Positions 2,886-64,000 of a stretch of DNA of 64,000 nt are shown piece by piece. Origin of the DNA: Candidatus Saccharimonadota bacterium (GTDB lineage Bacteria > Patescibacteriota > Saccharimonadia > Saccharimonadales > AWTP1-31); the NCBI GenBank assembly GCA_052034955.1, contig JBPOHZ010000003.1, forward strand, positions 64,659 through 128,658. Direction: 5' to 3'. Below the pieces are notes generated by a model, which saw only the letters and a program-made list of their open reading frames with translations, had not been told where the DNA came from and searched no databases. The position numbers and the translations under genes are program-made. Numbering within the stretch: the first letter of the stretch is position 1; each line of letters begins with the position of its first letter.

Positions 2886-3339
2886 CCCAGGCACAGGAAT
2901 ACTGGGTTTTGGGGTCATAGATGTAGATAAAACCGGCAAGATTCAACTGGTAGACGCTGGCGTTATCCGCACACCAGTTAAAGAGGACGATGCCGTGCGG
3001 CTGGTGACCATATTCGAAGAACTGCAGGATATTATCGCACAGAATAAACCAGAGGTGATGTCAGTCGAAAAGCTGTTTTTTGCCAGGAATGTAACCACTG
3101 CAATGACGGTGGCTCAAGCCCGCGGCGTGGTGCTGTTGCTAGGCCAACAAAACGGCATGAGATTATTCGAGTACACACCAATGCAAATTAAGCAGGCTAT
3201 TACTGGTTATGGCAAAGCCGACAAAAAGCAGATGCAAGAAATGGTTAAAGTCCTACTTAAACTAAAAGAAATCCCCCGTCCCGATGACGCTGCCGATGCC
3301 CTGGCCGCCGCCATTTGTTGCAGTATGTCTATCCGCTAA
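2866..3339 (+). CDS. ruvC: Crossover junction endodeoxyribonuclease RuvC
   Basis: MRILGIDPGTGILGFGVID N-terminus and DAADALA near the C-terminus; typical length of 157 aa. Confidence 0.92.
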   Translation: MRILGIDPGTGILGFGVIDVDKTGKIQLVDAGVIRTPVKEDDAVRLVTIFEELQDIIAQNKPEVMSVEKLFFARNVTTAMTVAQARGVVLLLGQQNGMRLFEYTPMQIKQAITGYGKADKKQMQEMVKVLLKLKEIPRPDDAADALAAAICCSMSIR

Positions 3340-3340
3340 A

Positions 3341-3940
3341 CTAGTACGTAAACCGATTTGCAAAGCTTAATCTAACGTTGGGCTCAAAATCCTCGGTGCT
3401 GACGAGTCTGTTAATTCTTCGTATACGACTCGTAAGCCTGCCAATATGTATGATATCCATATAACCACCATCTCTATCGAGGCTCAGCTCGGCAAGGGGT
3501 CCTCGTAATGTGTGGGGTGCACGATTAGGTATACTCCCGTCGGTGTTTGTGACATTAACGTCTGGCCGAGCGGGCAGGAGCGTAACCTCTACGAGTTGTC
3601 CTATTAAGGATTTGGCATTAATATCTGGGTGTTTACGCCTTTCTGCTTCTATACCTTCTACTGCAATACGTAGTGCTGCTGCTTGCGTTGCTTGTATCTC
3701 GTGAGCTATTGACACAAAACCACTACTTTCAATGCTGTAGGTATCCGGGTTGTTAGCTGCGTCAATAAAGGTTTGACCAACACGACTTCTGACTGACTGT
3801 ACTCTTTCTTCCAGGCTTTTTGCCAACGAAGTTAGCTGAGCATCTTGCTGTAAGAATTCTGCGTAGTTGGCTAGCAGGGCGTCTCCGTCCTGATCGATAA
3901 TTACTTCGGGCGCTGCTGCTAATGGGAATTGGACTGTCAT
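3341..3940 (-). CDS. Hypothetical protein (orphan) antisense between ruvC and ruvA
   Basis: 199-aa ORF with protein-like composition. Its stop is 1 nt from the ruvC stop. No motif recognised. Confidence 0.6.
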   Translation of the reverse strand: MTVQFPLAAAPEVIIDQDGDALLANYAEFLQQDAQLTSLAKSLEERVQSVRSRVGQTFIDAANNPDTYSIESSGFVSIAHEIQATQAAALRIAVEGIEAERRKHPDINAKSLIGQLVEVTLLPARPDVNVTNTDGSIPNRAPHTLRGPLAELSLDRDGGYMDIIHIGRLTSRIRRINRLVSTEDFEPNVRLSFANRFTY

Positions 3941-4020
3941 GAGTCTCCTTACTGTTTTAATAGTTACTACCTTACTCTTGTGTTCTTAAGATGCCAAGCC
4001 CGACGTGGTAGGATAGGGTT

Positions 4021-4596
4021 ATGATTGCAACACTTACCGGCACTGTTACCGAACACCAGGGCAACAGGGTAATACTAGAAGTTGGCTTTGTGGGCTACGG
4101 TGTGATGGTAACCGCTACCGACCAAGGCCTGCTGCCCAGTGGTGCCGAGACCAAACTGTATATTTACGAGCATATTAAAGAAGACGCACACGACCTAATT
4201 GGCTTTAAGTCGATAAGTACAAAGCAACTGTTTGAGCAGCTTTTGAGCGTAAAGAACGTCGGACCAAAAGGGGCCTTAGCAGTGCTCGATATTGGCAACG
4301 AAGCCGTGGTGCGAAATGCTATTGCGGGCGGTGACGTTAAGCAGCTCCAAACTGCCAAAGGAGTCGGCAAGCGAGCTGCCGAACAGATTGTAGTGGAGTT
4401 GCGCGACAAAGTCGGTGCACCAGTTGGCGCTGCGGCCGAGAGTCTTATTGGCCGAGCCGGTATTAACTCTACCGATGAAGCGGTACAGGCTTTGGTGTCA
4501 CTTGGTTATTCGGATGTCGATGCTCAAGCTGCACTAGATGGAATTGATTCAACGTTGCCAGTAGAAGAACGAGTTAAACTGGCGCTCAAGGGTTAG
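4021..4596 (+). CDS. ruvA: Holliday junction DNA helicase subunit RuvA
   Basis: MIATLTG..VILEVGFVGYGV OB-fold N-terminus and the HhH region KNVGPKGALAVL..KGVGKRAAEQIV. Confidence 0.92.
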   Translation: MIATLTGTVTEHQGNRVILEVGFVGYGVMVTATDQGLLPSGAETKLYIYEHIKEDAHDLIGFKSISTKQLFEQLLSVKNVGPKGALAVLDIGNEAVVRNAIAGGDVKQLQTAKGVGKRAAEQIVVELRDKVGAPVGAAAESLIGRAGINSTDEAVQALVSLGYSDVDAQAALDGIDSTLPVEERVKLALKG

Positions 4597-4602
4597 ACGT
4601 TA

Positions 4603-5208
4603 CTAGCTATCGACGCGACGTAGTTTATCTACTCTTAGTGTTTGTGTTATTGGATCAGCAGTTTTTGCAATAAAGTAAGGAAGGCTTTTACGACCAGCTT
4701 CGGTTAGGACGAATCGTGGCTCCAGCCAGCCTATAGTGAATCTCCTCGACACCTTTTTATTGCCATTGAGCGACTCGGGGTCGAGTTCCTCCCAGACTTT
4801 ACCAGTTACTAGAGACTCTTTGAAAACACTAGCGCTAAGACCCAAAGTAACTTTCTTGATACCTATTCTTCCAAGATCGGACGGAACTGTATCTAGTATT
4901 GCTTTGCTTTCTTCGTCGAAGGGGTTTTCCGGGTCGATAACATGTATGCCGCCTGCGGTTATGCGTACGCGTTGAGGGCGGTTGTCGCTTGCTGCTAAAG
5001 CTGGATCAAGCCGTTCTATTGCTCCCCTCTGATTTGGGAAATTTGCCTTAATCTCATCATCTACTACCACACGGACATCAAAGCCTGGCTCTAAGGGAAT
5101 CGGATGAAAGACACCTACCGGTTTTAATTTGGCGGCTATGGCATCAAGCCCTTGGTTGATCCGACCTATAGAGCTCTCTTCAACTTCTCGTACTAGCTCA
5201 ATACCCAT
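4603..5208 (-). CDS. Hypothetical protein (orphan), downstream partner of a coupled pair
   Basis: 201-aa ORF. Its ATG overlaps the upstream gene's stop (TAATG). Confidence 0.6.
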   Translation of the reverse strand: MGIELVREVEESSIGRINQGLDAIAAKLKPVGVFHPIPLEPGFDVRVVVDDEIKANFPNQRGAIERLDPALAASDNRPQRVRITAGGIHVIDPENPFDEESKAILDTVPSDLGRIGIKKVTLGLSASVFKESLVTGKVWEELDPESLNGNKKVSRRFTIGWLEPRFVLTEAGRKSLPYFIAKTADPITQTLRVDKLRRVDS

Positions 5209-5786
5209 TATGCTGCCACACCCCTAAGGTCAGAACCGGGTACATAAATCTCGGCAGTAAGCGGCCCCAATGTAATATTTTGGGACATGCTTTGTACGTA
5301 GCGGCTAACGGTTCCAGCTATTTCTAGTATTTCATCATCTAGTTTGGGGGCACCATCTATTAATTTTGCAAGGGGATATACCATTGGATATAACTGAGTG
5401 CGGCTCCCACCAACCCGATGTCTGGCTTGCCTCAGACAAATACGTTGCTCGATTTGATCTATATGGGTGCTGGGCAGCGATAATCGAACTCGTTCAATAG
5501 CCGGTTCTTCTAACCATTCAGCCGGTCCATAAAAAGGATGTGCAGAAGTAGACACGACTTGATTCCATCGGCTATGTTCTAGTAATGTTTGCATTTCTAC
5601 GAATCGATGTTGATTGCTGCTAGGGTAGTCAATTGTGGCTACAAGCACCTTTCGGCCAATATCTACAGGGACAAGTAAATCTCCAAGTTTCCTATTGGCA
5701 GCAAGGATCGCTTCGTGTGATCGAGTGTTAAGCCATTTTTCTGAGCCTGGATCGATTTCTCTTGTGAATGCCACTCCATATGTCAT
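5208..5786 (-). CDS. Hypothetical protein (orphan), upstream partner of a coupled pair
   Basis: 192-aa ORF, translationally coupled to 4603-5208. No motif recognised with confidence. Confidence 0.6.
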   Translation of the reverse strand: MTYGVAFTREIDPGSEKWLNTRSHEAILAANRKLGDLLVPVDIGRKVLVATIDYPSSNQHRFVEMQTLLEHSRWNQVVSTSAHPFYGPAEWLEEPAIERVRLSLPSTHIDQIEQRICLRQARHRVGGSRTQLYPMVYPLAKLIDGAPKLDDEILEIAGTVSRYVQSMSQNITLGPLTAEIYVPGSDLRGVAA

Positions 5787-5850
5787 AAATATATTATACG
5801 ATATTAGGTTGGTATAAGCAATTACATGGCGTGGTTTCTGCTGTTACAAT

Positions 5851-6870
5851 ATGGCAATGGCCATTGAGAGGATAGTAGATACCGAAGCGGATGTTGAGGA
5901 CGTGCAAGAGCAAGAGCTCGAGCAGACTCTACGTCCCAAAGATTTCGCCAATTACATCGGTCAGAAACGACTCAAGCAGAACCTCAAGCTGGCTATCGAT
6001 GCTGCCAAAAAGCGCGGCGAACCACTTGATCACGTCCTGCTGTACGGCCCACCGGGACTCGGTAAGACCACTATGGCGACGGTTATTGCTAACGAAATGG
6101 GTGCTCAGATCCGAATTACCAGTGGCCCGGCAATTGAACGGGCCGGTGATTTGGCTAGCCTACTGACTAGTTTGCAAGACGGTGACATCTTGTTTATAGA
6201 CGAGGTCCACCGCCTAAACCGTAGTGTGGAAGAGGTGCTATACAGCGCCATGGAAGATTTTAAGTTAGACATTATGCTAGGCAAGGGGCCGAGTGCCAAA
6301 AGCTTGCGCCTAGATTTGCCCAAGTTCACATTGATAGGCGCCACTACCCGGACAGGAGCGTTAGCCGCACCACTGCGCGACCGTTTTGGTATGATTCATC
6401 GGCTTGAGTTCTATGCCCCCGACGAGGTGGCCCAAATTATTGAACGGGCCGCTGGAATCTTGAATATTCATATCAAACCGCAGGCTGCCGAGCAATTAGC
6501 ACATCGTGCAAGGCTGACGCCGCGTATTGCTAACCGTTTGCTACGCCGGGTCCGCGACTACGCCGATGTTAACGGCGATGGCATTATCGACACCGCCATT
6601 AGCACCAGCGCTCTAGAACTTCTAGAGATCGATACCCTTGGCTTGGATCCGGGGGATCGCATGCTACTAAATGCTATTATCGAAAACTACGCTGGCGGTC
6701 CGGTAGGTATAGAAACGCTAGCGGCGCTTACTGCCGAAGAGCGCAGCACCATAGAGGACTTCTACGAACCGTACCTGATGCAAATTGGACTTTTAGAGCG
6801 CACACCGCGTGGACGCAAGGTTACACCCAAGGCCTATACGCATCTCGGCAAGAAACAATCTTCTATCTGA
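5851..6870 (+). CDS. ruvB: Holliday junction branch migration helicase RuvB
   Basis: [12 protein letters not shown], Walker [10 protein letters not shown], Walker [11 protein letters not shown], and the C-terminal winged-helix region. Confidence 0.95.
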
Positions 6871-6883
6871 TATAATTAGCCCA

Positions 6884-7543
6884 ATGAAAGCACCAAAACA
6901 AGATTATAGCCAAACGCTAAATAAAGTTGATGACGACGAAAAATTACTGGCCATAATAAAAAGACACCCTTTTGGAATAATTAAGCTTTATTTCCAAGTG
7001 TTCATTGCTTTGTCTGTTGCAGGAGGGCTGATCTATTATCTACTGCCAGATCTTGTCAGCCGAGATGATAATCCGGGCCTGTACGCCATTATTGGTTTAT
7101 TGGCGGTTGTTGTTTTTGGCTTTATGATGCTTATCACCGGTATTGCGACCATTCTTTACAACAAGAACCAGCTTGTGATCACCGACAAGACAATCACCCA
7201 AACTTTGCAAGTTAGCCTGTTCGACAAGAAGACGTCTCAACTTTCGGTATCTAGTGTCGAAGACGTCACCGCAAACAACAATGGATTTTTCCCGACAATA
7301 TTTGGCTACGGGCGATTACTAATCGAAACCGCTGGTGAGCAAGAAAACTTCCACTTCGATTATTGTCCACACGCCGAGCATTATGCCAAGTTAGTTCTTG
7401 AAGCACGTCAAGAGTTCATGGGCAGCAGAGAACTTGAGCTTCGTGATTCTGCAAAATCATACGCGACCTCAAGAAGTAGTCGGAAAAACGATGGTCTACT
7501 GGTCGGTCAGGTGGCCGTTGATGCCGAAGAAACTACTCGCTAG
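6884..7543 (+). CDS. Membrane protein with bacterial PH domain (YdbS/YdbT-like)
   Basis: IIKRHPFGIIKLYFQ followed by two TM helices and then a PH-like beta region. I chose ATG 6884, just after the ruvB stop, rather than the ORF-track start at 6809. Confidence 0.6.
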   Translation: MKAPKQDYSQTLNKVDDDEKLLAIIKRHPFGIIKLYFQVFIALSVAGGLIYYLLPDLVSRDDNPGLYAIIGLLAVVVFGFMMLITGIATILYNKNQLVITDKTITQTLQVSLFDKKTSQLSVSSVEDVTANNNGFFPTIFGYGRLLIETAGEQENFHFDYCPHAEHYAKLVLEARQEFMGSRELELRDSAKSYATSRSSRKNDGLLVGQVAVDAEETTR

Positions 7544-7989
7544 TTAAAGTTATTTTTTACAAAAGCGTCAGTACCTTCTTGGGTAGCTGTAAGGGTGTAC
7601 TTCATGCAATCACGTGTATCGTTGTCACAGTTGCCGCCATCATCGGCCTTAGCTTCGTAGCTGTAAGCATCTTCTGCAGGGGCGCCGACTAGGGTCGCCT
7701 TGTCGGCGTTCGGATCCTTGATTTCATCATCACCTACAGATTTCATATTTTTTGCTCGCCAAGCCGAGTCATTTAGGTTGGCAAGTGTTGGGTACTTTTC
7801 GTTTTGGGCGTAGTAGTTCTCGACTGCTTGTTGAACAAACTTGATGTCGTTTTGCCGCTCAGAGTTACGGGATTTTCGTCGGAAATCGCTAAACGTGGTG
7901 ATAATCAAGCCGGCTAGTATGCCAATGACAATAATCACAATTAACAGCTCGACTATTGTAAAGCCATCTTGTTTGCGTTTCATGGTCAT
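7540..7989 (-). CDS. Type IV pilin (prepilin-type N-terminal cleavage/methylation domain)
   Basis: KQDG|FTIVELLIVIIVIGILAGLII is a classical class III signal peptide with Glu+5. Confidence 0.9.
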   Translation of the reverse strand: MTMKRKQDGFTIVELLIVIIVIGILAGLIITTFSDFRRKSRNSERQNDIKFVQQAVENYYAQNEKYPTLANLNDSAWRAKNMKSVGDDEIKDPNADKATLVGAPAEDAYSYEAKADDGGNCDNDTRDCMKYTLTATQEGTDAFVKNNFN

Positions 7990-8051
7990 TAGTTATTCTC
8001 CTGATATTATCTGTTATTGTTACTCTGATTATAGTCGTAACCATCTTAGCG

Positions 8052-9695
8052 TCAACATTCTAAGACTAAATCAATTGGTATTAGACCAGATTGAGATTTA
8101 ATAAGTGCATCCATGGCCAGGTTAATATTACTGTCTTGAGCTTCAACTATGTTTATCCAGCCCTTGTAACCGGTAAAATTACAGGCTTCGCAACCTAATA
8201 CATTTGGCTGCCAGCTAGCTTCTAGTATTACTGGTAGTTGACTAATTTCTACACTGCTCGGTATGGTCTTGATTGCTTCTTCGACTCTTCTGCGAAGAGG
8301 CGCCAAGTTCTGTGATTTATTGGTTTGGAATTTATTATCTATTCTTGATCTTAGATTGGGGTTAATGTCGACTAACTGGCGGCAGATGGGACAGAGCTTT
8401 CGGACTGGGCGCTGGAAGATCATACATCGGACATTTAGCGGGGGCACTTCTTTGATGGTTAAGTATTTATTGGTATCTTCCAAAGATTTAGCCCTTACCG
8501 AAGCTATCACTAACTGACGATTGGTCATGTCCATGATCTGCTGGACGCTTTTTTGGTTCGGTAGGTTATCAACCATTAATACATCAGGATGGTGGTTAAT
8601 CGATAAGGAAAGGGCTTTGTGGATATCAAGACCGGTCGATGGGCTGAGTTCTATCTGAGAAACTCTATCTAGGCGATATCTTTGCCTGGCTTCTATACTA
8701 AATATCGAAAGTCCAGAAGACCTCAGATTGGTAACTATACTGCAAAGCACCGTCTGGGTGTCAGAACCGGCTGGTGCGCCGACCGCAATCAATCCGTTTG
8801 GCTGGGCAATCGATGCGTCAATTATCTTTAAGGCATCACCCCAATATCCAAGATACTCTAGGCTCGGTACGGCTAACTCTCCATACAGTAGACCAAGGGT
8901 TAATTGACTACCATCTAAAACGGGCAAGACACTTAATCGTATGTTGATATTACTCGATCCGTGAGACACAAGGATAGATCCGCTTTGAGGAGACCTAGTA
9001 TCGTGGATGTCTAGTCCGGCTTGTTGTTTGACGAAGTCAATTAATTGCTGAGCCTTAGGTTTAGATAGCTTGAAGCTGTTAACCATTGTTCCATCTACCC
9101 GAAACCTAATAGATACCAGATTCTCTTGTGGTTCGATATGTATGCTTTGAGCGCGTTTTTTAATAGCCGCTGACAAAATGTACTGGAAGGCAGCTTGCAA
9201 GCCTTCTTCGTCTAGCGTTCCCGAACCGGTTGGTGTGGCCCGGACAATCTTTAGGTGTTCACTTGGATTCGTAGAGTCATATCTAGACAATTGATTTTGA
9301 ATATTTATTTCCGGGGCCAAGAAAAACTGTATATCAACACCAAGAAGTTTCTGTAAGAATTCTTTTGCTGGCTGATCGTTTATATTGGCCATAGCAATCT
9401 TCAGCCCCGGCCCTTTATCGAACACAACAGCGTTGAACCTACGGGCATAGGTGACAGCTAAGTAGTTCATTAGGTCGCTATCAATTGGTTGATCAAGTTC
9501 TACGAAAGGTGTATTTGTCTGTTGCGCATAAGCACGGGCAAAATCTGTCTCGGAGATTATTCCATCACTAACGGCCTGGTCATACAGGGGTAGTTGCGAT
9601 TTAGCTTGGTTGCCGACAGACATCTTTAGCTGTTCTTCGGACACCAAGCCGGCAAGAATTTCCTCTGTTAGGCTATCTGAAATACGCATATGCAA
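8052..9695 (-). CDS. GspE/PilB-family protein with degenerate ATPase motifs (predicted pseudo-ATPase)
   Basis: PilB-like architecture, including the tetracysteine CPICRQ...CEACNFTGYKG. Walker A reads GAPAGSDTQT, the Asp box IEARQR, Walker B VLMVDNLPN and the His box NRQLVIASVRAK. Confidence 0.8.
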   Translation of the reverse strand: MHMRISDSLTEEILAGLVSEEQLKMSVGNQAKSQLPLYDQAVSDGIISETDFARAYAQQTNTPFVELDQPIDSDLMNYLAVTYARRFNAVVFDKGPGLKIAMANINDQPAKEFLQKLLGVDIQFFLAPEINIQNQLSRYDSTNPSEHLKIVRATPTGSGTLDEEGLQAAFQYILSAAIKKRAQSIHIEPQENLVSIRFRVDGTMVNSFKLSKPKAQQLIDFVKQQAGLDIHDTRSPQSGSILVSHGSSNINIRLSVLPVLDGSQLTLGLLYGELAVPSLEYLGYWGDALKIIDASIAQPNGLIAVGAPAGSDTQTVLCSIVTNLRSSGLSIFSIEARQRYRLDRVSQIELSPSTGLDIHKALSLSINHHPDVLMVDNLPNQKSVQQIMDMTNRQLVIASVRAKSLEDTNKYLTIKEVPPLNVRCMIFQRPVRKLCPICRQLVDINPNLRSRIDNKFQTNKSQNLAPLRRRVEEAIKTIPSSVEISQLPVILEASWQPNVLGCEACNFTGYKGWINIVEAQDSNINLAMDALIKSQSGLIPIDLVLEC

Positions 9696-9767
9696 ACAGT
9701 ATAAAACATAAGCGTTTTTGTGACGAACTTACTTGCTATACTGTTTAGGAAAGAAAAGGAGCATCTC

Positions 9768-10700
9768 ATGAAGGTAGTAGTAACTGGCGGAGCAGGGTTT
9801 ATAGGTGCGAATCTTTGCCGGACACTTTTGGCTTCGGACAAGATCAGTAAAGTAGTTGTTTTAGATAACTTATCTACAGGTTTTGCGAGTAACCTGGACG
9901 GGCTAGACGTAGATTTTATCGAGGGTGACATTTTAAACCCTGGTGATCTAGATAAGTGCTTCGAGGGCGCCGATGCTGCCGTTCATTTAGCAGCCGTGCC
10001 ATCGGTTCCGAGATCTGTGAAGGATCCTGTTACTTCTCACCAGGCGAATGCCACAGGAACACTAAACGTATTAGAAGCGGCTCGTCGTGCCGGTGGCGCT
10101 CAGGTTATTGTGGCGTCGTCATCGTCTGTTTACGGGTCTAACCCGGCGTTGCCAAAGCACGAGGATCTGGCTCCTAGACCAATGAGTCCATACGCCGCTT
10201 CAAAGCTTGCGGCCGAATCGTACGCGCTTGCTTATCAGGCCACCTACGACTTACCAGTATTGGCCTTTCGATTCTTTAATGTTTTCGGACCCTTGCAGGC
10301 TGCTGGACACGCCTATGCTGCAGTTATCCCAGCATTTGTTGACGCCGCGCTAAAAGACCAGCCAATACCTATCCATGGCGATGGAACTCAATCACGTGAC
10401 TTCACCTTTGTTGACACTGTCGCAGCAGTTATAACAGATGCGGTCACCAGGAAGGTAACTTCGACTGATCCTGTAAACTTGGCTTTCGGTAGCCGAACTA
10501 ATCTTTTGGAGGTCATTGATCTGATAGAGAAAGAGCTGGGTCATAAGTTAAAACGAGAGTTCCAAGATTCAAGAGTTGGAGACGTTCCTCACTCCCAGGC
10601 TGCAAATGATCGACTCCGAGCCTTATTCCCCGACATTGAGCCGGTCTCGATAGAGGATGGCCTTCGACAAACCATCGATTGGTTCCGAAAAACTAACTAA
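9768..10700 (+). CDS. NAD-dependent sugar-nucleotide epimerase/dehydratase (SDR family)
   Basis: MKVVVTGGAGFIGANL Rossmann motif and YAASK catalytic motif. ATG 9768 lies behind AAGGAG. Confidence 0.85.
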   Translation: MKVVVTGGAGFIGANLCRTLLASDKISKVVVLDNLSTGFASNLDGLDVDFIEGDILNPGDLDKCFEGADAAVHLAAVPSVPRSVKDPVTSHQANATGTLNVLEAARRAGGAQVIVASSSSVYGSNPALPKHEDLAPRPMSPYAASKLAAESYALAYQATYDLPVLAFRFFNVFGPLQAAGHAYAAVIPAFVDAALKDQPIPIHGDGTQSRDFTFVDTVAAVITDAVTRKVTSTDPVNLAFGSRTNLLEVIDLIEKELGHKLKREFQDSRVGDVPHSQAANDRLRALFPDIEPVSIEDGLRQTIDWFRKTN

Positions 10701-10794
10701 CTTGTATACAAATTAAACTCCAGCAATTAACTTCTGGCGAGAGTTGGTATACTATCTATGTACCCCTTTGGTGGAAATAATGGGAGAGAAACAG

Positions 10795-10808
10795 AAAACA
10801 TATGTTTT
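10795..10808. promoter_or_regulatory. Perfect 14-bp palindrome AAAACATATGTTTT upstream of recA (Cheo-box-like candidate SOS operator)
   Basis: Read directly. It lies 25 nt upstream of the recA ATG and differs from GAAC-N4-GTTC by one base per half-site. Confidence 0.4.
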
Positions 10809-10832
10809 ATAAGTAGAAGGAGGGTAACAACC

Positions 10833-11870
10833 ATGTCTGCAAAAGCAAAAGAAAAGAAAGTCCAAACTCCATTAGAACCAGGAGAAGATGGCAAATCAAA
10901 AGCCTTAGGCCTAGCTCTCGACACTATCGAGAAGCAATTTGGTAAAGGTTCAATTATGAAGATGGGTGACAGCTACGCCCAAAAGGTAGAATGTATTCCA
11001 ACTGGCAGCCTTTCGCTGGACCTAGCCCTTGGTGGTGGAATTCCAAAAGGCCGTGTTATTGAAATTTATGGCCCAGAGTCATCTGGTAAGACAACACTTA
11101 CCTTGCACGCCATTGCACAGATTCAGAAGCAAGGTGGTACGGCCGCCTTTATCGATGCCGAGCATGCCCTGGACCCAGCCTATGCCAAGCGCATTGGTGT
11201 GGACGTCGAAAACCTACTACTGTCTCAGCCAGATAATGGTGAACAAGCACTCGAAATAGTCGAAACACTTGTCCGCAGTAATGCGGTTGACCTTATCGTT
11301 GTCGATTCCGTAGCCGCACTTGTTCCACGAGCCGAAATCGAAGGCGACATGGGCGACAGCCACATGGGTCTTCAGGCTCGTCTGATGAGCCAGGCCCTGC
11401 GTAAGCTTACTGGTGTCATTAGTCGTTCCAAAGGTACGGTAATATTCATCAACCAAATCCGTATGAAGATTGGTGTGATGTTTGGTAACCCCGAAACCAC
11501 CACCGGTGGTAATGCCTTGAAGTTTTACGCCTCTGTCCGTATGGACATTCGTCGAATTGCTCAGATTAAGGCTGGCGAAAACATCATTGGTAACCGTACA
11601 CGGGTCAAGGTAGTCAAAAACAAAATTGCGCCACCATTCCGCCAAGCCGAGTTCGACATTATGTACAACCAAGGTATCTCCCGCAGTGGTGACGTACTAG
11701 ACCTAGCAACCGAGCGTGACATTGTCGAGAAATCTGGCGCCTGGTTTGCCTACAACGACGCCAAGATCGGCCAAGGCCGTGAAGCCACTAAGAAGTATCT
11801 GGAAGAGAATCCAAAAATTTTGGATGAAATAGCTAAAAAAGTATCGGACGCAGCAGCCAAGGAGGCATAG
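10833..11870 (+). CDS. recA: Recombinase RecA
   Basis: [18 protein letters not shown], Walker [10 protein letters not shown] and [12 protein letters not shown] 10833 lies behind GAAGGAGGG. Confidence 0.97.
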
Positions 11871-11871
11871 C

Positions 11872-12066
11872 ATGTCAGGTGAATATGAACCGCCAGTAAA
11901 GTCATGGGGATATGAAGGCCCTGGTGAGGGCGACCCAGCAGACCCTGACTTCGACCCGTCAGCAGCAGTACCGATTTTCCGCCCAGGTTCGCCAGTGAAC
12001 GGAGAGATGACGCATGAAGAAATTATCGATGCCGACCCCGGTGGCATTATAAGGTGCAATGATTAA
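11872..12066 (+). CDS. Small, highly acidic Pro/Gly-rich protein coupled to recA
   Basis: The ATG is 1 nt after the recA stop, with an AAGGAGG SD inside the recA 3' end. 64 aa with 14 Asp/Glu against 3 Lys/Arg. Confidence 0.6.
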   Translation: MSGEYEPPVKSWGYEGPGEGDPADPDFDPSAAVPIFRPGSPVNGEMTHEEIIDADPGGIIRCND

Positions 12067-12069
12067 TCT

Positions 12070-12648
12070 ATGACCAAGAGGGCAGTGATACTACACGGGA
12101 CCGATGGATATCCAGAGGAGCATTGGTTCCCCTGGATGAAGAAAACACTAGAAAAAGCCGGCTACGAGGTATTCGTGCCGCTGCTGCCCGATAACCACAA
12201 GCCAAATCGTAATACTTACGAAAAATTCCTTAAAGAGTCGGGATGGGACTTTACAGATAATCTTATTGTCGGGCATTCGTCTGGGGCAACTACGGTATTA
12301 AACTTACTTTCTTCGGATTGGTTTCCGAATGCTTCGACAGTAGTACTAGCAGGAACCTTCCTGAACGAAAAACTCACCCGTGGCGCGAGTTGGGTCGAGC
12401 CCGGACAGTTCGACGAACTATTTCAGGGTGTTTACGATGCAATCACTCTCAAGAAACGCGCACGGGCATTCTATTTCGTGCACGGCAGTAACGATCCATA
12501 TTGCGACATCGAAGATGCACGTACACTTTGTAATGAACTCGATGGTAGCTTCATCACTGTAAAAGATGGTCACCACCTTGGCGGAGGTTCGGGTCTAACC
12601 GAACTACCGCAGTTAGAAGATAGACTTAGACAAGACGGCATACTGTAG
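12070..12648 (+). CDS. Alpha/beta serine hydrolase, RBBP9/YdeN-like
   Basis: AVILHGTDGYPEEHWFPW N-terminus and nucleophile elbow GHSSG. Length of about 190 aa. Confidence 0.6.
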   Translation: MTKRAVILHGTDGYPEEHWFPWMKKTLEKAGYEVFVPLLPDNHKPNRNTYEKFLKESGWDFTDNLIVGHSSGATTVLNLLSSDWFPNASTVVLAGTFLNEKLTRGASWVEPGQFDELFQGVYDAITLKKRARAFYFVHGSNDPYCDIEDARTLCNELDGSFITVKDGHHLGGGSGLTELPQLEDRLRQDGIL

Positions 12649-13262: not shown

Positions 13263-13792
13263 CTTGCTGGCAAGGGGCTGACGGCCGCAGCCCCGGATCT
13301 AAATGGCTGAAGGGGGTCTTTGATAACAATTTTACGGTTGTTTATTTCGACAATCTGAGTCCGGTCGATGCTAAGGCTACCACCGGTAAGATTCTTTAGG
13401 AGTGTCTGCGTGGCATATATTTTTTTGATTAACATACTTTCTGGTTCGGTAGCATAGTCATTTACCTTGCCCATTCGTTGCCCGCTTTGGGTGACAATGG
13501 CTTTACCGATCAGCTGAAAGTCTAGCTCCATTATCTTGTGTAGGCGAATCAGCTCGCTCGGCTCTACTAGGACGCTATGGTCGTCGACAACTAGGCCGGC
13601 CGGTATTACCTCGCGGATATCTTGGTAAACGAGAACCAGTTGGCGTTTCTTGTCGATGCTATCCATGCAATAAAAACCCTCAATTTTTAAGTTGTTAGGA
13701 TTGATGATGGCTCGGTAAGCGGTGGCTATTTTACCGCCAGTTCGGAGGCTCATGACTGGCTGGTCGAGAAGTGATTTTGTTAGAACTAACAT
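13259..13792 (-). CDS. PRC-barrel-like domain protein
   Basis: LLDQPVMSLRTGGKIA..IINPNNLKIEGFY pattern, repeated in the C-terminal half. Assignment is by eye only. Confidence 0.45.
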   Translation of the reverse strand: MLVLTKSLLDQPVMSLRTGGKIATAYRAIINPNNLKIEGFYCMDSIDKKRQLVLVYQDIREVIPAGLVVDDHSVLVEPSELIRLHKIMELDFQLIGKAIVTQSGQRMGKVNDYATEPESMLIKKIYATQTLLKNLTGGSLSIDRTQIVEINNRKIVIKDPLQPFRSGAAAVSPLPAS

Positions 13793-17696: not shown

Positions 17697-18614
17697 ATGT
17701 CTACAGCTCGTATAACACTTGATAACCCGGTATTCTCTGGCAGATTACGTCAGTATGGACGCGGTACGCCGTTTATCCATCAGCCTGCCAGAGTGGTACC
17801 TCGTGGTATCAGTGACATTTACGTTGCTCCTGCCAAGAAGCAGGTAAGAGCCAATGTTCAGCCGGTAGTTGTACCTGGCAGACAAGAACGTTCCCAGGTT
17901 TTGCAGCGAAATGTTATGCCTGCACCAGTCGTTAGCAAAAGAAAGACCAGAGCAAAAAAGGCTACTAGCCAAAAATTGATGATGGCTATGGCTGGAATAA
18001 TATTTGTCGTAGGTCTGGGTGTTGCGGCCATGGGTCTTCGAACTAACCAGGCTGTTATCGCTCAAACCAGGCAGGCTACCGGGGCTAACGGTGGCGCAGC
18101 AGGCCAGCGAGCGGTAGTAAGCGAAGAAAAACCAAGCGCCGCGGCCATTAGTAGCTACCGCGTAGATAAAATGGCACCAAGAATAGTTAGTATTCCAAAG
18201 CTAAAAGTTAATGCCCGTATCCAGGCCCAAGGCACAGAACCTAATGGTGCGCTAAAAGCTCCTTATAACGTTCACGATGCTGGCTGGTTCGACCAAAGTG
18301 GTAAGCCTGGCGAAGGTGGTGCGATATTACTAGATGGTCATGTCGCTGGCCCAACTGTCCATGGTGTATTCTATGACATTAAGAAGCTGGTTGCGGGGGA
18401 TCGTATTAGCATCGAACGGGGCGATGGAAAGAAGTTTCAGTATAAAGTTGTTAAGACTAAAACTGCTAAAGTAAAAGACGTTGATATGTCAGCTGCGCTA
18501 TTGCCGGCTGTAGAAGGTGCTTCGGGCTTAAATATGATTACATGTACCGGTAATTACGACCACAAAACCGGCGAATATGACCAACGAGTTATGGTCTTTG
18601 CGGTTGAGGTTTAG
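17697..18614 (+). CDS. Sortase (class E/F-like) with N-terminal membrane anchor
   Basis: Catalytic His in LLDGHVAGP, Cys in NMITCTG (TLxTC-type) and Arg in QRVMVF. A TM helix lies at about residues 95-115. Confidence 0.8.
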   Translation: MSTARITLDNPVFSGRLRQYGRGTPFIHQPARVVPRGISDIYVAPAKKQVRANVQPVVVPGRQERSQVLQRNVMPAPVVSKRKTRAKKATSQKLMMAMAGIIFVVGLGVAAMGLRTNQAVIAQTRQATGANGGAAGQRAVVSEEKPSAAAISSYRVDKMAPRIVSIPKLKVNARIQAQGTEPNGALKAPYNVHDAGWFDQSGKPGEGGAILLDGHVAGPTVHGVFYDIKKLVAGDRISIERGDGKKFQYKVVKTKTAKVKDVDMSAALLPAVEGASGLNMITCTGNYDHKTGEYDQRVMVFAVEV

Positions 18615-59761: not shown

Positions 59762-59903
59762 TATTTTGTTGTCCTTATTTTTATATTATTAGTTTGAGTA
59801 TGACATGCTTATGCTAAAAGCGTCAAATACTTTATATAACTCAATATTATGTTTTAAAATTACCCCTGTTATGTTATAATCTGTTGGTTACTTTGATCGC
59901 TAG

Positions 59904-59978
59904 GGCCTCATCTTCTAACGGTTAGGAATCCGGGTTTTCATCCCGGCAATAGGAGTTCGATTCTCCTTGAGGTCACCA
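59904..59978 (+). tRNA. tRNA-Glu (anticodon TTC)
   Basis: Acceptor GGCCTCA/TGAGGTC, anticodon stem CCGGG/CCCGG with loop TTTTCAT, encoded CCA. TGtTATAAT lies at 59872-59880. Confidence 0.88.
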
Positions 59979-61650
59979 TTTCGGATTTAGCGACATTATT
60001 TAGTTTAAACAACTCATTTATCCCTGTTAATTTTGTTGGATTCTGGGTTCCATACTTTATTTCATCGTAGGTTGGCGCCTTATCGAATAATACGCCAAAA
60101 AACTCGGCTTTTGACTCCGGATCACCCTGTTGTAACAGGAGTTCGTTCAGGTGTTCCATAAAGTATTTAATGTTGCCCATAATAGTTCGTATATCTAGCG
60201 GGCGTTTCCGGACTGCTTCTTCTTTCTCGGCCTCAAGCTGTTTAATTTTGCTGTCAATCTTCATAAGCACCCCCTCCATTGATTTAATTGCTACTTCTGA
60301 ACTTAAAAACTTAATCTTATTCACGACTGCTTCAGCTTCTAGCTGAAGACTACTGATTTGTTGGTCATAATTTACTGCGTGTGACGTTTCCTCCTTCTCT
60401 CGTTTATTACATTCCTCTATAACGGCATTAGTAACATCTTGAATGAACTTAGGTGTCAGCTTAATGTTCTTAGCAAACTCCCTTACATTGGTCTCAAACT
60501 CAGCTTTAGGCACTCTAAAGTAATGTCCTCGCTTGTTGCAGTGGTAGGCCGGATAGTACTTACCAAGCTTACCGCGTGAAGCACTGCCTAATAGTGGGTT
60601 ATGGCAGTCTGGGCAAGTTATAACCCGTCTGTAGGCAAATTCAGCAGTTTTAGTGCCCCGCTTATTCAAATACCTGGCGATTGGCTTCTGTTTAATAATT
60701 TCGTAGTTATTATCGATCTTCCTTATTAACCACTTGCCCCTATTGGCCTTGTTGTATAGCTCGATGCTGACCAGACCATCGAACATAGCCTTTACCGGCT
60801 CATTGTTAGTCCACTTCTCGCAGATAATACCGGCGTAGATAGGATTCTTTACGTATTCAGCCACATATTTAGCTGTTAACGGATTGCCGCCACGTTCCCC
60901 AATTATCTTTGCTCTATCACGGGGGTCTCGGCGTAAGCTCGTACGACTTTTATAACCGAGTTTGTTCAGTTTATTGGCTATGTCTTGGTCGTCGTACAAT
61001 CCGCTGGCTCGGAGCTCGAACAATTTATGCATCAGCGGGGCTTGCAATGGGTCGGGTATGAGGACAGTGCGCTTGCCATTAGGTGTTTCGATCTTCTTAC
61101 TGCCGTAGCCATATGGTTGTTGACGCATCCAATAACCCATACGGGTATAACGTACTTCTGCACCAATCATGCGGCTCATGATATCCCTAAGCTCATCTTT
61201 TGCCCGTTCGGCCTCTAAGTACTCAATTTTCTGGCTTGGTGAGTATTTACTCCACTTATACTCCACTCCTAAATGTTCTAGCGTGTTAACTCTTTGGGAG
61301 CTAATGATGCCATAGATATCGACAAGTTTAACTGCATATCGTTCTAACTGCATTTTGAGCTGGTCATACGGCGAGCCACCGCCACGAGTAAATCGATCGA
61401 TCGACTTAATAATGAATAACTGAATGTCGTTCTTGGGATCCTTGCAGTAGTCAATAGCCTGTTGCATTGGCTGCTTGTCTTTAGAAGCTGACTCTAAAAA
61501 GATGAACACTTCTTTCAGGTTGATATTTTGTGTCTTGGCAAATCGCTCAATCTGTTCGCGTTGAGCATCAGGGGAATCTCCGTCAGTACCTTGCCGGACG
61601 GTCGATACTCGTATTGCTGCAACAGCGTTTTCTTTAGTCGGGGTAGCCAT
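59938..61650 (-). CDS. Large serine recombinase (resolvase domain + recombinase domain + zinc ribbon + coiled coil)
   Basis: AAIRVSTVRQG (catalytic Ser), SIDRFTRGG, CPDCHNPL...YHCNKRGH and a long coiled-coil region. The last 41 nt lie antisense inside tRNA-Glu. Confidence 0.88.
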   Translation of the reverse strand: MATPTKENAVAAIRVSTVRQGTDGDSPDAQREQIERFAKTQNINLKEVFIFLESASKDKQPMQQAIDYCKDPKNDIQLFIIKSIDRFTRGGGSPYDQLKMQLERYAVKLVDIYGIISSQRVNTLEHLGVEYKWSKYSPSQKIEYLEAERAKDELRDIMSRMIGAEVRYTRMGYWMRQQPYGYGSKKIETPNGKRTVLIPDPLQAPLMHKLFELRASGLYDDQDIANKLNKLGYKSRTSLRRDPRDRAKIIGERGGNPLTAKYVAEYVKNPIYAGIICEKWTNNEPVKAMFDGLVSIELYNKANRGKWLIRKIDNNYEIIKQKPIARYLNKRGTKTAEFAYRRVITCPDCHNPLLGSASRGKLGKYYPAYHCNKRGHYFRVPKAEFETNVREFAKNIKLTPKFIQDVTNAVIEECNKREKEETSHAVNYDQQISSLQLEAEAVVNKIKFLSSEVAIKSMEGVLMKIDSKIKQLEAEKEEAVRKRPLDIRTIMGNIKYFMEHLNELLLQQGDPESKAEFFGVLFDKAPTYDEIKYGTQNPTKLTGINELFKLNNVAKSEMVTSRRIELLLPG

Positions 61651-61652
61651 AA

Positions 61653-61817
61653 CTAATCCTTAAACTCCTCAGCAACCAGATTATTAGTTTGTTGCTGGGA
61701 ATTAATAGCGTCAGCAATCAAGATAGCCAGACATTGGATACGATCTTCGACGCTCAAGTTTAGCGTCTTTACCAGTGTTGGTGGATTCTTGTTTTTGCTT
61801 TCTTTTGTTCGTGCCAT
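61653..61817 (-). CDS. 54-aa ORF immediately upstream of the recombinase (possible directionality factor or regulator)
   Basis: Below the ORF-track cutoff. ATG 61817 lies behind GCGGGGG and the stop is 2 nt before the recombinase ATG. Translates as MARTKESKNKNPPTLVKTLNLSVEDRIQCLAILIADAI.... Confidence 0.4.
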   Translation of the reverse strand: MARTKESKNKNPPTLVKTLNLSVEDRIQCLAILIADAINSQQQTNNLVAEEFKD

Positions 61818-61840
61818 TTCGTTACCCCCGCGTAGATTGA

Positions 61841-61860
61841 ACTATCTCATATGAGATAGT
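61841..61860. promoter_or_regulatory. Perfect 20-bp palindrome ACTATCTCATATGAGATAGT in a divergent intergenic region (candidate operator)
   Basis: Read directly. A third half-site GAGATAGT lies at 61875-61882. Confidence 0.55.
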
Positions 61861-62024
61861 ATACTATACCAATCGAGATAGTTTCAAGTTCTAAATCATC
61901 ATAATTGTATAAATCTGTGGATATCTCACCGATAGGATATATAGTAGTTAAATATTAAGGAGTTAAGGACTTGCATCTTTACTTACTAATCTATTAATAT
62001 AGATAGGCGTATATAAACCTACTT

Positions 62025-62795
62025 ATGAATACAACAACAACACAACCTACCACCACTAAACACCGACCTATAAACTCACATCAACTTCAACTACTCACCA
62101 CACTATATAAATTTCGCTATTGCACAGCTCAAATCATTGCCTCAAGTCAAGGAGCTAAACACACCAGAGTAATACTAACAAGACTAAAGATATTAGTAGA
62201 TCAAGGATATATCGGTCAGAACTATGACAGTAGCTATAAGATCATTGGTAAACCAGCTACATATCACTTGCTTCCAAAAGGAATACAAATACTCAGACAG
62301 CAGCCATTTGCAGATCCAAACGTACTCAAGCAAGCCTACTACGATAAAAACAAAGACGATACTCATATCCAACACAGACTGAATGTCTTCAAAACCTACG
62401 TATTCATCAAACAATATTACCCCAAACAATTTCAGTTCTTCAGCAAGAGCGAACTACCTAGTTTGAAATACAAACTCCCAAGGGACCTAACGGATGCATA
62501 CCTACAAAAGAACGACGAAATTGCCGCAAACCAGCTTGATCTAATTGCTCCAGACTACTTTATGAGCTTCTACGAGTCCAGTGCGCCTTACTGGAGGATT
62601 AGAAACAGCATTAGACGCTATATTACCTATGCGGAGTCAGAAAAGTGGCAGAAAGCCACCGAACGAGACTTTCCGGTCGTACTAATAGCCTGTGAAACGA
62701 AAGCACTTGTGCGAAGACTGCAGAACCTTACCAAACGAGAGTTAGATAATAACTGGGTTAGTGTTATATTTGAGTTTCTATTCATAGAACGTTAG
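62025..62795 (+). CDS. Replication-relaxation-family-like protein (N-terminal winged helix)
   Basis: HQLQLLTTLYKFRYCTAQII...RVILTRLKILVDQGYIG...KPATYHLLPKGIQIL matches the family pattern. Assignment is by eye. Confidence 0.55.
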   Translation: MNTTTTQPTTTKHRPINSHQLQLLTTLYKFRYCTAQIIASSQGAKHTRVILTRLKILVDQGYIGQNYDSSYKIIGKPATYHLLPKGIQILRQQPFADPNVLKQAYYDKNKDDTHIQHRLNVFKTYVFIKQYYPKQFQFFSKSELPSLKYKLPRDLTDAYLQKNDEIAANQLDLIAPDYFMSFYESSAPYWRIRNSIRRYITYAESEKWQKATERDFPVVLIACETKALVRRLQNLTKRELDNNWVSVIFEFLFIER

Positions 62796-62869
62796 GATGT
62801 GAAGTCCTTAATTTGTAACCAGTGTTTGCAAAGCAAATAATGGTTGGTCTGTTTCCATAGGAGAGAGAC

Positions 62870-62962
62870 ATGATCTTACAGAATAATTTGCGCACTATAT
62901 TCGGGGGGGGGTACAATACCGGTAACGCTATAACTTATATAAGGAAATACTTAAATGCTTAA
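62870..62962 (+). CDS. 30-codon upstream ORF containing the G9 tract and overlapping the start of the beta-helix gene
   Basis: AGGAGAGAGA SD 1 nt before the ATG. GGG GGG GGG codons at 62903-62911. The TAA at 62960-62962 overlaps ATG 62955 by 8 nt. Confidence 0.3.
   Translation: MILQNNLRTIFGGGYNTGNAITYIRKYLNA
62903..62911. repeat. Homopolymeric G9 tract
   Basis: Counted directly. It is the only G/C run of this length that I noticed in the window. Confidence 0.9.
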
Positions 62963-64000
62963 CATCCTAAACCTAACAAAGACAAACAAACTAATCCTAG
63001 CCACTTTTGCCTTCTTGGCTGTACTAGCTTTTGGAGGTGGAAGTGCGCATGCTGCAACCCTCAACGTAGCCGGTGGATGTACGTTGCCAATTGCTATCGA
63101 TTCCGTAAACGCTGGCAGCAACCAGACTGGTTGTACGGCAACTGGTGGTTATGGCACTAATGACACGATCACTATTCCGGCCGGAACGCAGACGCTTACG
63201 GCAGATTTACCGCAACTCACCGAATCAGCATCTATTGTTGGCAGTGGAACGGGCATTACTATAGTGAACGGTGGTGCTGGGCAATACCACGGCTTCCAAG
63301 TCTGTGGGAATATTAGTGTGAATATTCAAGACTTAACCGTTACTGCATTCAAGAGATACGCCATTGATTCATGCGTTGACGACTTAACTCTAACCCGGAT
63401 AGATGTTGATGGCCAGAATGTAACAGCAGAGTCGGGGCTAGTATTCTCTGTATATGTACGTGATTCGGGTTCAGATAATACAGTTTCGGTATCAAACGTG
63501 AGGATTCACGATATCGATATCAGCGCAGACGTTGTTAATTTATTGTACATAGATCAAGAATCGGGGAATACTACAGCAGCGGATATAAACAATGTAACAG
63601 TAGATCATATAACTAATCACCAAGCAGACTCTGTAATAACTGGGTTTTTGATAGGTACTGGCGGTGACTTTTCTGGCGGCGGTGGAACTATGAATGCTAC
63701 GGCAACTAACGTAACCGTAGATAGTCTAATCTCGGACGTTGGCAATGCCAATGCCTTCGGAGGTGCGGCATTTGTGCTTGGAAGTGTCGACGCAACATCC
63801 AACGTTATTATTCGTAACGCAACAGTTACGGGACTTCGGGGAGGGCTCGGCCCACTTGGTAACGGAAGTGCTGCATTCTTCTCCGCCGGTGCATCGACAG
63901 GTGGTGCTACTAGCCTATCTAAGGTTGAAGTTAGTAATAGTTTGTTCGCAAATAACCAAAGTCAAGGCGTTGCCAATAATTGTACCAGTGGTGATTTCAG
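62955..64000 (+). CDS. Secreted right-handed beta-helix-like repeat protein (partial, runs off the window end)
   Basis: Not in the ORF track because no stop is reached. Signal peptide LILATFAFLAVLAFGGGSAHA, followed by Gly/Asn/Thr/Val-rich repeats. The frame stays open to 64000. Confidence 0.75.
   Translation, partial: MLNILNLTKTNKLILATFAFLAVLAFGGGSAHAATLNVAGGCTLPIAIDSVNAGSNQTGCTATGGYGTNDTITIPAGTQTLTADLPQLTESASIVGSGTGITIVNGGAGQYHGFQVCGNISVNIQDLTVTAFKRYAIDSCVDDLTLTRIDVDGQNVTAESGLVFSVYVRDSGSDNTVSVSNVRIHDIDISADVVNLLYIDQESGNTTAADINNVTVDHITNHQADSVITGFLIGTGGDFSGGGGTMNATATNVTVDSLISDVGNANAFGGAAFVLGSVDATSNVIIRNATVTGLRGGLGPLGNGSAAFFSAGASTGGATSLSKVEVSNSLFANNQSQGVANNCTSGDF

Follow-up and report, generated by a model that had tools for sequence, protein, structure and literature searches.

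The DNA analysed here, referred to as the window, is a stretch of 64,000 nucleotides (nt) from contig JBPOHZ010000003.1 of a Candidatus Saccharimonadota bacterium, and the subject of this analysis is its last part (59904–64000), in which a gene for a large serine recombinase (LSR) overlaps the 3′ end of a tRNA-Glu gene. We propose that the segment from ~59975 to past 64000 is the integrase-proximal part of an integrated plasmid-like Saccharibacteria element, the attachment site (attP) of which lies inside the LSR gene itself, and we assign this reading a probability of about 0.75. The evidence comes from copies and relatives of the element at other loci, from the ends of those relatives, and from the recombinase protein.

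The Same Element at Two tRNA-Glu Genes

The initial annotation, made from the letters of the window alone, had read this region as an integrated plasmid-like element at tRNA-Glu, and the claim is borne out by the presence of the same DNA at a second tRNA-Glu gene and by a diverged relative, L009, whose ends enclose the cargo (related loci carry L numbers throughout). An exact-protein look-up through the product of the Replic_Relax gene (Table 1) retrieved L006, an 88-kb JGI contig that is ~99.9% identical to 59904–64000. Its tRNA is Glu(CUC), not Glu(UUC), and its left flank, which comprises HisKA, pseudouridine synthase, Der, Pth, DprA, and TopA, is unrelated to that of the window; the occurrence of the same DNA beside two tRNA-Glu genes with unrelated flanks argues for a mobile element. 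The two sequences differ by four substitutions, at 59929, 59930, 59937, and 59947 (tRNA positions 26, 27, 34, and 44), and are identical from 59948 on, save one 1-bp intergenic indel near 62912, which places the junction between chromosome and element at or after tRNA position 45. L006 adds 1.16 kb to the element past the end of the window, and the contig ends 3 nt beyond the stop codon of a sortase gene. Exact-protein look-ups, made for the LSR and for proteins of the left flank as well, otherwise retrieved only short Logan contigs. The JGI gene table lists no gene at the position of the LSR (L006 7914–9626), perhaps because of the overlap with the tRNA, which would lead to systematic under-reporting of the family.

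Since the two tRNA-Glu genes are identical over their last 31 nt, and since short-k Logan contigs break within the tRNA, the element might be present at one tRNA-Glu gene only and have been misjoined over this shared 3′ end during assembly. Such an artefact is extremely unlikely, given that Logan contig L001 independently joins the 3′ part of a tRNA of the UUC type (C44, position 59947) to the element, and that homologous elements occupy both sites in related genomes, namely the UUC site in L009 and the CUC site in L008, L091, and L093; even if it were true, the main conclusions would be unchanged.

The module at the UUC site in L009 is diverged and has the DUF5648 flank that is also found in the window, and the modules at the CUC site in L008, L091, and L093, likewise diverged, have the HisKA flank. 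The LSR, a small open reading frame (ORF), and a Replic_Relax gene are common to all four loci, and the cargo is completely different among relatives at the same site. The ends of the L009 element lie ~10.7 kb apart, with attL at the tRNA and attR at L009 16231–16246, and enclose surface-protein genes, a sortase gene, and a VirD4-like gene. This last product, a VirD4/TraG-like (VirD4/TraD-like) coupling ATPase, is encoded in L009, L093, and L097 and is not seen within the window.

The Large Serine Recombinase

Judged by its domains, invariant residues, and modelled fold, the window protein is a large serine recombinase. The element-encoded part of its ORF covers roughly 59979–61650, with native residues up to about ...VAKSE, and is followed by the tail MVTSRRIELLLPG, 13 codons and a stop at 59938–59978, which runs antisense to the tRNA 3′ end through the anticodon loop, such that the TGA stop is the antisense of TCA in that loop. 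PF00239 (Resolvase) matches with 34 bits against a cut-off of 23.3 and PF07508 (Recombinase) with 26.5 bits against 21.1, while Zn_ribbon_recom reaches 13.7 bits, under its cut-off of 25.3. Across 48 LSR homologues, R14, S16 (of the RVS motif), Q20, D85, R86, and R89 are invariant, as are the Cys/His ligands C346, C349, H370, and C371. The AlphaFold (AF2) model of the protein, with a mean predicted local distance difference test (pLDDT) score of 77, has beta strands at 354–381 followed by long helices at 400–481, and together with the invariant ligands it indicates that a zinc ribbon with an inserted coiled coil is present despite the sub-cut-off Pfam score.

The catalytic-serine motif that the initial annotation had seen in this 570-amino-acid (aa) protein is thereby confirmed through the invariance of S16 and the Resolvase match, and its zinc ribbon and coiled coil are upheld by the invariant ligands and the AF2 model, not by Pfam. 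Among the profile searches that it had proposed, PF00239, PF07508, and, for the neighbouring gene, PF13814 scored above their cut-offs; the one for the zinc ribbon fell short.

In Foldseek searches, the model aligns over its full length with the serine-integrase/att complexes 9dxh_A (E = 8e-18) and 9iu2_A of Bxb1 (E = 1e-14), and it also matches 4bqq_A, which comprises the N-terminal and recombinase domains of phiC31 (E = 7e-8). The LSR profile matches the catalytic domain of TP901-1 (3bvp), and a phmmer search of the LSR against the PDB gave no match. At the sequence level, identity to plasmid and phage LSRs in PLSDB and INPHARED does not exceed 24% over long alignments, and the XisF and CcrB models score ~25 bits, far under their cut-offs.

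Overlap of LSR Genes with tRNA Genes

A metagenome scan with a profile of six LSR sequences yielded at least 246 relatives, 80 of which were examined. An antisense tRNA gene lies at the LSR 3′ end in 68 of the 80, with 12 amino-acid types represented; in ten more the LSR homology is followed by no more than 153 nt of contig, and in the other two (L040 and L055) the sequence continues past the LSR with no tRNA. The genome loci, four of four, likewise adjoin an antisense tRNA (Glu-CUC twice and Gln-UUG twice). The targets in the 71 loci that were scored (67 from metagenomes and 4 from genomes) are led by Glu-UUC (21), Gln-UUG (14), and Glu-CUC (10), and the remainder are Val, Leu, Gln-CUG, Arg, three Ser and two Gly types, Asp, Trp, Lys, Phe, and Ile. 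Counted from the tRNA end, the LSR is read in one and the same frame in 63 of these 71 loci, for which chance would give one third. The stop codon falls at variable positions inside the tRNA, and an LSR ORF stops before the tRNA only in L054 and L082, both already broken.

A protein search returned 1812 LSR homologues at E < 1e-50, and in nearly all of the 20 database homologues inspected the C-terminus is a tRNA-antisense peptide, e.g., GFEP or RIEL. One exception, P0199, was first taken for a protein with an intact attP; its tail is the antisense of an OLD-nuclease gene, as in the locus L097 described below.

Several variations on this arrangement were observed. In a subclass consisting of L072, L075, L076, L083, L084, L086, and L087, the antisense T-arm is read in another frame, which gives RIRT instead of GFEP; a conserved LVP immediately precedes the tRNA, some of the tRNAs have no encoded CCA, and the crossover position may be different in this subclass. 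An intrinsic-terminator-like tRNA hairpin, e.g., TAAAAAAACGACAGAGGTGTCTGACGTTTTTTTA, lies inside the LSR 3′ coding region of L003 (6487–6520) and at equivalent positions in L002, L004, and L040, though not in the window; as the same letters also specify a part of the conserved TG(V/I)N motif, this sequence has two roles. Finally, the 5′ part of tRNA-Gln is present twice in L004 (3494–3521 and 3630–3657), with an exact 28-nt copy on the chromosomal side, 108 nt ahead of the intact tRNA, and the similarity continues just past the copy.

Attachment Sites and the Conserved C-Terminal Piece

The relatives that could be delimited span about 6.6–11 kb. At six tRNA sites (L009, L018, L028, L036, L037, and L054), attL and attR are identical over 6–13 nt, and the shared core always begins with TGGT(G/A), the antisense of the discriminator and CCA; the corresponding identity in L097 is 4 nt (ATGG). 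A terminator hairpin stands immediately outside attR in L009, L037, L054, and L028 and is, by all appearances, the original terminator of the target tRNA.

The distal end of the relatives carries genes for a helix-turn-helix (HTH) protein, a 65–76-aa ORF product, and a PLDc_2-like protein of 157–173 aa, and directly upstream of this PLD-like gene lies a conserved coding piece of ~45 aa that starts with TGGTG and follows the pattern (L/M)V.S....WN.LLP.L..L...LE.LG....G. In L055 and L040, which have no tRNA, the LSR reading frame runs on without interruption into this C-terminal piece, for total ORF lengths of 626 and 608 aa, respectively. In the integrated elements, it is found 6.6–11 kb from the LSR, in frame relative to TGGT in seven of eight (L009, L018, L028, L036, L037, L054, and L097) and frameshifted in L023. 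On the evidence of these relatives, attP appears to be located inside the gene for the LSR. Its half-site on the element side is similar in sequence to the acceptor and T-stem of the tRNA that is targeted (TGGTGA.CTCA..GG for Glu and TGGTGGGT..TGAGG for Val), and no half-site symmetry in attP is apparent by eye.

The arrangement can be followed outside tRNA genes in L097 (Logan SRR14751628_87862, 2058–12508), where an element of this LSR family is inserted within an OLD-family nuclease gene, with no tRNA. Excision in silico between the ATGG copies at 11355 and 2623 yields a stop-free OLD ORF of 572 aa (1719 nt) that includes the ATPase and TOPRIM parts, and the joined element ends encode a 591-aa LSR that finishes in the conserved C-terminal piece. 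This element seems to be nested in a larger one, which has another Replic_Relax gene as well as genes for a VirD4-like protein and an M23 peptidase.

These short cores bear directly on the comparison with a classical tRNA island, in which crossover would take place within the tRNA (anticodon loop or T-loop), the element would bring a replacement for the tRNA 3′ half, and a distal repeat of at least 15 nt would be expected. The stop of the window LSR exactly in the anticodon loop, the break of Logan contigs between 59933 and 59940, and the exact tRNA 3′-end repeats of 22 nt in L028 (2396–2417) and 18 nt in L054 (3763–3780) would all suit such an island. These two repeats begin in the T-loop and lie 8–9 kb from the tRNA, each followed by a terminator; they are, however, situated 105–140 nt beyond the inferred attR junction, next to which the in-frame C-terminal piece lies, and are possibly scars of earlier insertions. 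In addition, tRNA 3′ repeats of at least 13 nt are absent from 58 of the 60 loci with more than 1 kb of upstream sequence and the position of the LSR stop in the tRNA is variable. Moreover, the window and L006 differ at 59947, at tRNA position 44, and the sequence 3′ of the anticodon is therefore not element-borne. A classical island is accordingly a very unlikely description of the window. The initial annotation had advised looking for a direct repeat of the tRNA-Glu 3′ segment downstream, a check that would mostly fail because the core in the relatives is only 4–13 nt at the CCA end, with long repeats in just two of the 60 related loci.

Three specific placements were considered and rejected. 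A T-loop crossover with a long distal repeat fitted only L028 and L054; an anticodon-loop crossover, which the stop position and the Logan breaks had hinted at, does not fit the difference between the insertion sites that persists at 59947; and an element carrying a complete tRNA of its own is countered by L055 and L040, which have no tRNA, and by the outer flanks of attR, which are tRNA terminators. L028 also has an inverted tRNA fragment at 2472–2492. In L018 (11664–18463), three tRNA-Arg genes stand one after another and a weak second copy of the LSR C-terminal piece occurs at 13539–13613; this copy hints at a second element in reduced form or at a tandem history.

The Predicted Left Boundary in the Window

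That the integrase adjoins and overlaps the tRNA-Glu 3′ end, as first annotated, is seen in a 41-nt overlap between the ARAGORN call and the ORF list. A promoter scan places a promoter-like TTTAAA-16-TATAAT at 59853–59880, upstream of tRNA-Glu(UUC). Going by the attL/attR pairs of the relatives, we infer that the element in the window starts within the predicted core TCACCA (Table 1), in agreement with the identity to L006 from 59948 on. The crossover would then fall at the CCA end of the tRNA gene, with its exact dinucleotide placed by sequence identity.

A scan of the window found no terminator-like site on the plus strand after tRNA-Glu(UUC), and transcription of the tRNA may consequently continue antisense into the LSR gene. 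Around the anticodon, the Logan contigs of SRR34217545 (L007 and L001) stop at 59933 and restart at 59940; this 6-nt gap may stem from UUC/CUC differences or from strain differences in the assembly graph.

Proposed Mechanism of Integration

We propose that the very divergent LSR joined the element to tRNA-Glu(UUC) at its encoded CCA, an insertion that would leave the tRNA intact and displace its own terminator to the far end of the element. With attP inside the LSR gene, ~45 codons ahead of the natural stop, integration would remove the last ~45 codons and move them to the distal end, beside the PLD-like nuclease gene, and the remaining ORF would become fused to the antisense tRNA and end in MVTSRRIELLLPG. 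The 41-nt overlap of LSR and tRNA and this tail would then exist because attP lies in the LSR gene, and the overlap would not be incidental. Excision would rebuild the full-length LSR. In the attP junction so predicted, ...GTCGCTAAATCCGAAATGGTGA would run directly into the C-terminal piece, and in the empty attB junction ...CCTTGAGGTCACCA would precede the terminator that the insertion displaces.

The conserved core of the element would consist of the small ORF and the LSR, a Replic_Relax gene that diverges from them and is controlled by a palindromic operator, and the distal HTH, small-ORF, and PLD-like genes, and in the window its cargo would be a sortase-anchored surface protein together with a class F sortase. 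By analogy with L009, the element would run several kb past 64000, through the sortase, HTH, small-ORF, and PLD-like genes; its last parts would be the C-terminal piece and the tRNA-Glu terminator moved there by the insertion, and a VirD4-like gene may be present as well. We infer from the relatives that the right end of the window element shares this structure.

The exchange of one C-terminus for another conjecturally affects the activity of the enzyme. A more specific proposal, which we regard as tentative and rather doubtful, is that the exchange acts as a state sensor or directionality switch, in which the full-length LSR encoded by the circle would be competent for integration, and the integrated, tail-less form would be restricted to excision or silent until helped by the 54-aa product encoded upstream. 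A second consequence, equally tentative, would be that the clade could retarget among many tRNA species through mutations in its own C-terminal codons, since the core would be the universal CCA and one half-site would lie in the codons of the integrase itself.

Residence and Present Mobility

The relatives at the two tRNA-Glu sites were sampled with a bias toward occupied sites, and in every one recovered the set of LSR, small ORF, and Replic_Relax gene lies beside tRNA-Glu. The region could, alternatively, be a fixed or domesticated module, i.e., one that is vertically inherited and immobile, with an LSR that has another role or is decaying. The occupation of both tRNA-Glu sites in every recovered relative, an LSR divergence that parallels that of the flanking housekeeping genes, and a guanine-cytosine content of the element that is not distinct from the surrounding genome would fit such a history, as would broken copies in L005 (the last ~120 codons), L054, and L082 (premature stops) and a C-terminal piece without the conserved Trp in L009. 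It is difficult, however, to reconcile immobility with ~99.9% identical copies at two tRNA-Glu loci, which imply a very recent move or copy, or with the completely different cargo of same-site relatives. Most LSR ORFs are, in addition, intact, with a detached C-terminal piece that is conserved and in frame, and both intact attP forms and an insertion in a protein gene exist. We therefore consider a domesticated module improbable.

Several observations nonetheless weigh against an integrated element as proposed here. Nucleotide identity among relatives is 72–78% for the LSR and 65–70% for the flanking genes, and an LSR divergence that tracks that of the host fits an element that has been resident for long and may now move little. 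None of the recovered relatives (L008, L091, and L093 for CUC; L009 for UUC) has an empty tRNA-Glu site, and a further search for empty sites through a 513-aa flank protein, which is of low complexity, gave one weak match and no such site. Intact-attP forms number just two of the 80 loci (L055 and L040), and their circularity is not demonstrated. The replacement of the conserved Trp by Arg in the L009 piece hints at decay, the crossover dinucleotide is drawn from sequence identity only, and the attR, PLD-like gene, and C-terminal piece of the window element would lie past 64000, out of sight.

As to the broken copies, the last ~120 LSR codons of L005 are fused to tRNA-Glu(CUC) at 4513–5010, beside unrelated genes and an ORF pair that by eye is toxin-antitoxin-like; this locus is a decayed element remnant.

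Comparison with Known Systems

The window protein shares with phiC31, Bxb1, TP901-1, A118, CcrB, and XisF the domain plan of LSRs, i.e., the Resolvase RVS serine, the Recombinase domain, and the zinc ribbon with coiled coil, and the att sites of its relatives share a short core with no long repeats, as do those of known LSRs. The clade differs in being very distant in sequence and in lying almost always at tRNA 3′ ends, whereas known LSRs target mostly protein-coding genes. To our knowledge, no LSR has been described with attP inside its own ORF. No description of this clade or arrangement was found in the literature, whose coverage here was incomplete, and this is absence of evidence only.

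Islands and prophages of tyrosine integrases (P4, HP1, Ms6, and the sublocation classes of Williams) resemble the present element in their tRNA target, in a tRNA that is functional afterward, in an integrase gene that abuts the tRNA end, and in target tRNAs that vary among related integrases. They differ in enzyme family and chemistry, in tRNA repeats of 15–60 nt, which are not found here, and in a crossover in the anticodon loop or T-loop instead of at the CCA end; moreover, the sole recombinase in 59904–64000 is of the serine type, and a classical island would have a tyrosine recombinase. The use of tRNA genes has been put at 44.5% for tyrosine integrases and 4.9% for serine integrases (14 of 297, predicted), with none reported before (PMC7192596), figures that support the early remark that a serine recombinase in this position is unusual.

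The 'suicidal' integrases of the SSV type, from hyperthermophilic archaea, likewise have attP in the integrase ORF, a tRNA target, and a gene partitioned between the element ends. They are tyrosine enzymes, however, and their gene is broken into two large portions, with loss of activity, while only the last ~45 codons are detached here and the ~557-codon remainder stays open and conserved. A review (PMC8371274) confines such attP-in-integrase 'suicidal' tyrosine integrases to archaea; the present enzyme, a serine recombinase encoded by a bacterium (Patescibacteria), would therefore be an analogue of the SSV type and not a member of it.

The tycheposons and cryptic elements of Prochlorococcus are similarly small, placed at tRNA genes, and furnished with replication-type genes and niche-adaptive cargo, and an LSR is present in 27 of 937 tycheposon elements at tRNA genes (bioRxiv 10.1101/2020.12.28.424599). 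They belong to another phylum and have mostly tyrosine recombinases and partial tRNA repeats, and the preprint text consulted reports neither a split LSR nor a CCA-end crossover.

Integrative mobilisable elements and elements like the AICEs have a similar layout, with an integrase, a plasmid-type Replic_Relax gene, and cargo, and some relatives of the window element encode the VirD4/TraG-like ATPase. In contrast to integrative mobilisable elements, no canonical relaxase or mating-pair-formation genes were recognisable and no type IV secretion system genes were seen, and the role of Replic_Relax is known by its family name only. A prophage is unlikely, since no phage structural genes (capsid, terminase, or tail) were found in any delimited relative and a scan of IMG/VR with the LSR profile gave no relatives. 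The window protein would function like the serine integrase of an integrative, possibly mobilisable, element.

Neighbouring Genes and Regulatory Region

The features of the region are collected in Table 1. The initial annotation had listed a 54-aa ORF tightly linked to the recombinase, a divergent regulatory region with a perfect palindrome, a replication-relaxation-like gene, a secreted surface protein as cargo, and a right boundary beyond the window; each of these stands, as set out below.

Table 1. Features of the integrase-proximal region, in window coordinates.
Feature	Position	Strand	Basis and remarks
tRNA-Glu(UUC)	59904–59978	+	ARAGORN call (ttc); intact integration target, B side of attL
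attL crossover core, predicted	59973–59978		TCACCA (antisense TGGTGA), i.e., last acceptor bases, discriminator, and encoded CCA
LSR ORF, 570 aa	59938–61650	−	ORF list, Pfam, fold; overlaps tRNA-Glu by 41 nt
54-aa ORF	61653–61817	−	ORF list; 2 nt upstream of LSR start
Divergent regulatory region, 207 nt	61818–62024		Sequence, inverted-repeat search, promoter scan
Replic_Relax-family gene, 256 aa	62025–62795	+	PF13814, 26.9 bits (cut-off 25.3)
Surface-protein gene, N-terminal 348 of 501 aa	62955–64000 (continues past window)	+	Translation; full form in L006

By its position, the 54-aa ORF is a candidate for an accessory, regulatory, or directionality factor. Its Pfam matches are all sub-threshold (E 0.02–0.06) and NCBIfam gave none; ORFs of 54–72 aa occupy the equivalent position in L003, L004, L008, L009, L091, and L093–L097.

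The divergent region between this ORF and the Replic_Relax gene contains the perfect 20-bp palindrome ACTATCTCATATGAGATAGT at 61841–61860, and the inverted-repeat search found a third half-site at 61873–61883. Promoter-like sites point leftward (61887–61858) and rightward (61918–61945); the palindrome overlaps the −10 hexamer (61858–61863) of the leftward site, and the third half-site falls in its spacer. A similar palindrome is present in L003 at 4627–4670.

The Replic_Relax gene, which is divergent from the LSR operon and for which PF13814 is just above its cut-off, has Pfam-recognised homologues that adjoin the LSR in L003, L008, L009, L091, and L097; ORFs of similar size stand in the same place in L002, L004, L028, L040, L054, L055, and L093, a correspondence of position and size only. 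In L006 the surface protein is complete, at 501 aa; it comprises a signal peptide, a choice-of-anchor Q domain, and a sorting signal at the C-terminus, and a class F sortase gene follows its gene there. A chromosomal class F sortase paralogue in the window (17937–18602) has 31% identity to the element-borne sortase of L006.

Significance

The element belongs to what appears, from the sequences compared, to be a large, undescribed clade of tRNA-directed serine integrases with a self-splitting gene, the newness of which lies in systematic tRNA targeting combined with attP in the integrase ORF. tRNA genes are seen as the targets of tyrosine integrases, and in 2020 their use by serine integrases was described as not yet reported and as still requiring proof (PMC7192596); the large clade of serine integrases seen here, placed almost invariably at tRNA 3′ ends, overturns that rule. 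The findings also suggest a bacterial serine-recombinase analogue of the attP-in-integrase trait that has been described as archaeal-only, and they open the mechanistic question of a detached C-terminal tail that would control the direction of recombination. They further point to a systematic annotation problem, in that LSR ORFs that overlap tRNAs are dropped or mis-ended by gene callers.

With regard to the cargo of the relatives, cassettes resembling diversity-generating retroelements, which combine a bAvd four-helix-bundle protein and a reverse transcriptase, recur in the elements (L002 797–2082; L028 4727–6239; L093 1275–2529 and 4241–4588), and the L002 cassette has matching variable-repeat-like and template-repeat-like peptide ends. 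In the distal part of the L003 element, the intergenic stretch that precedes a DUF3768 gene (2600–2800) is GC-rich and full of hairpins and is a possible structured RNA.

For the organisms themselves, this family would represent a common carrier, in Patescibacteria, of surface-protein and sortase genes, of diversity-generating retroelements, and of genes for defence, and its natural integrase/att pairs could become genetic tools for Saccharibacteria.

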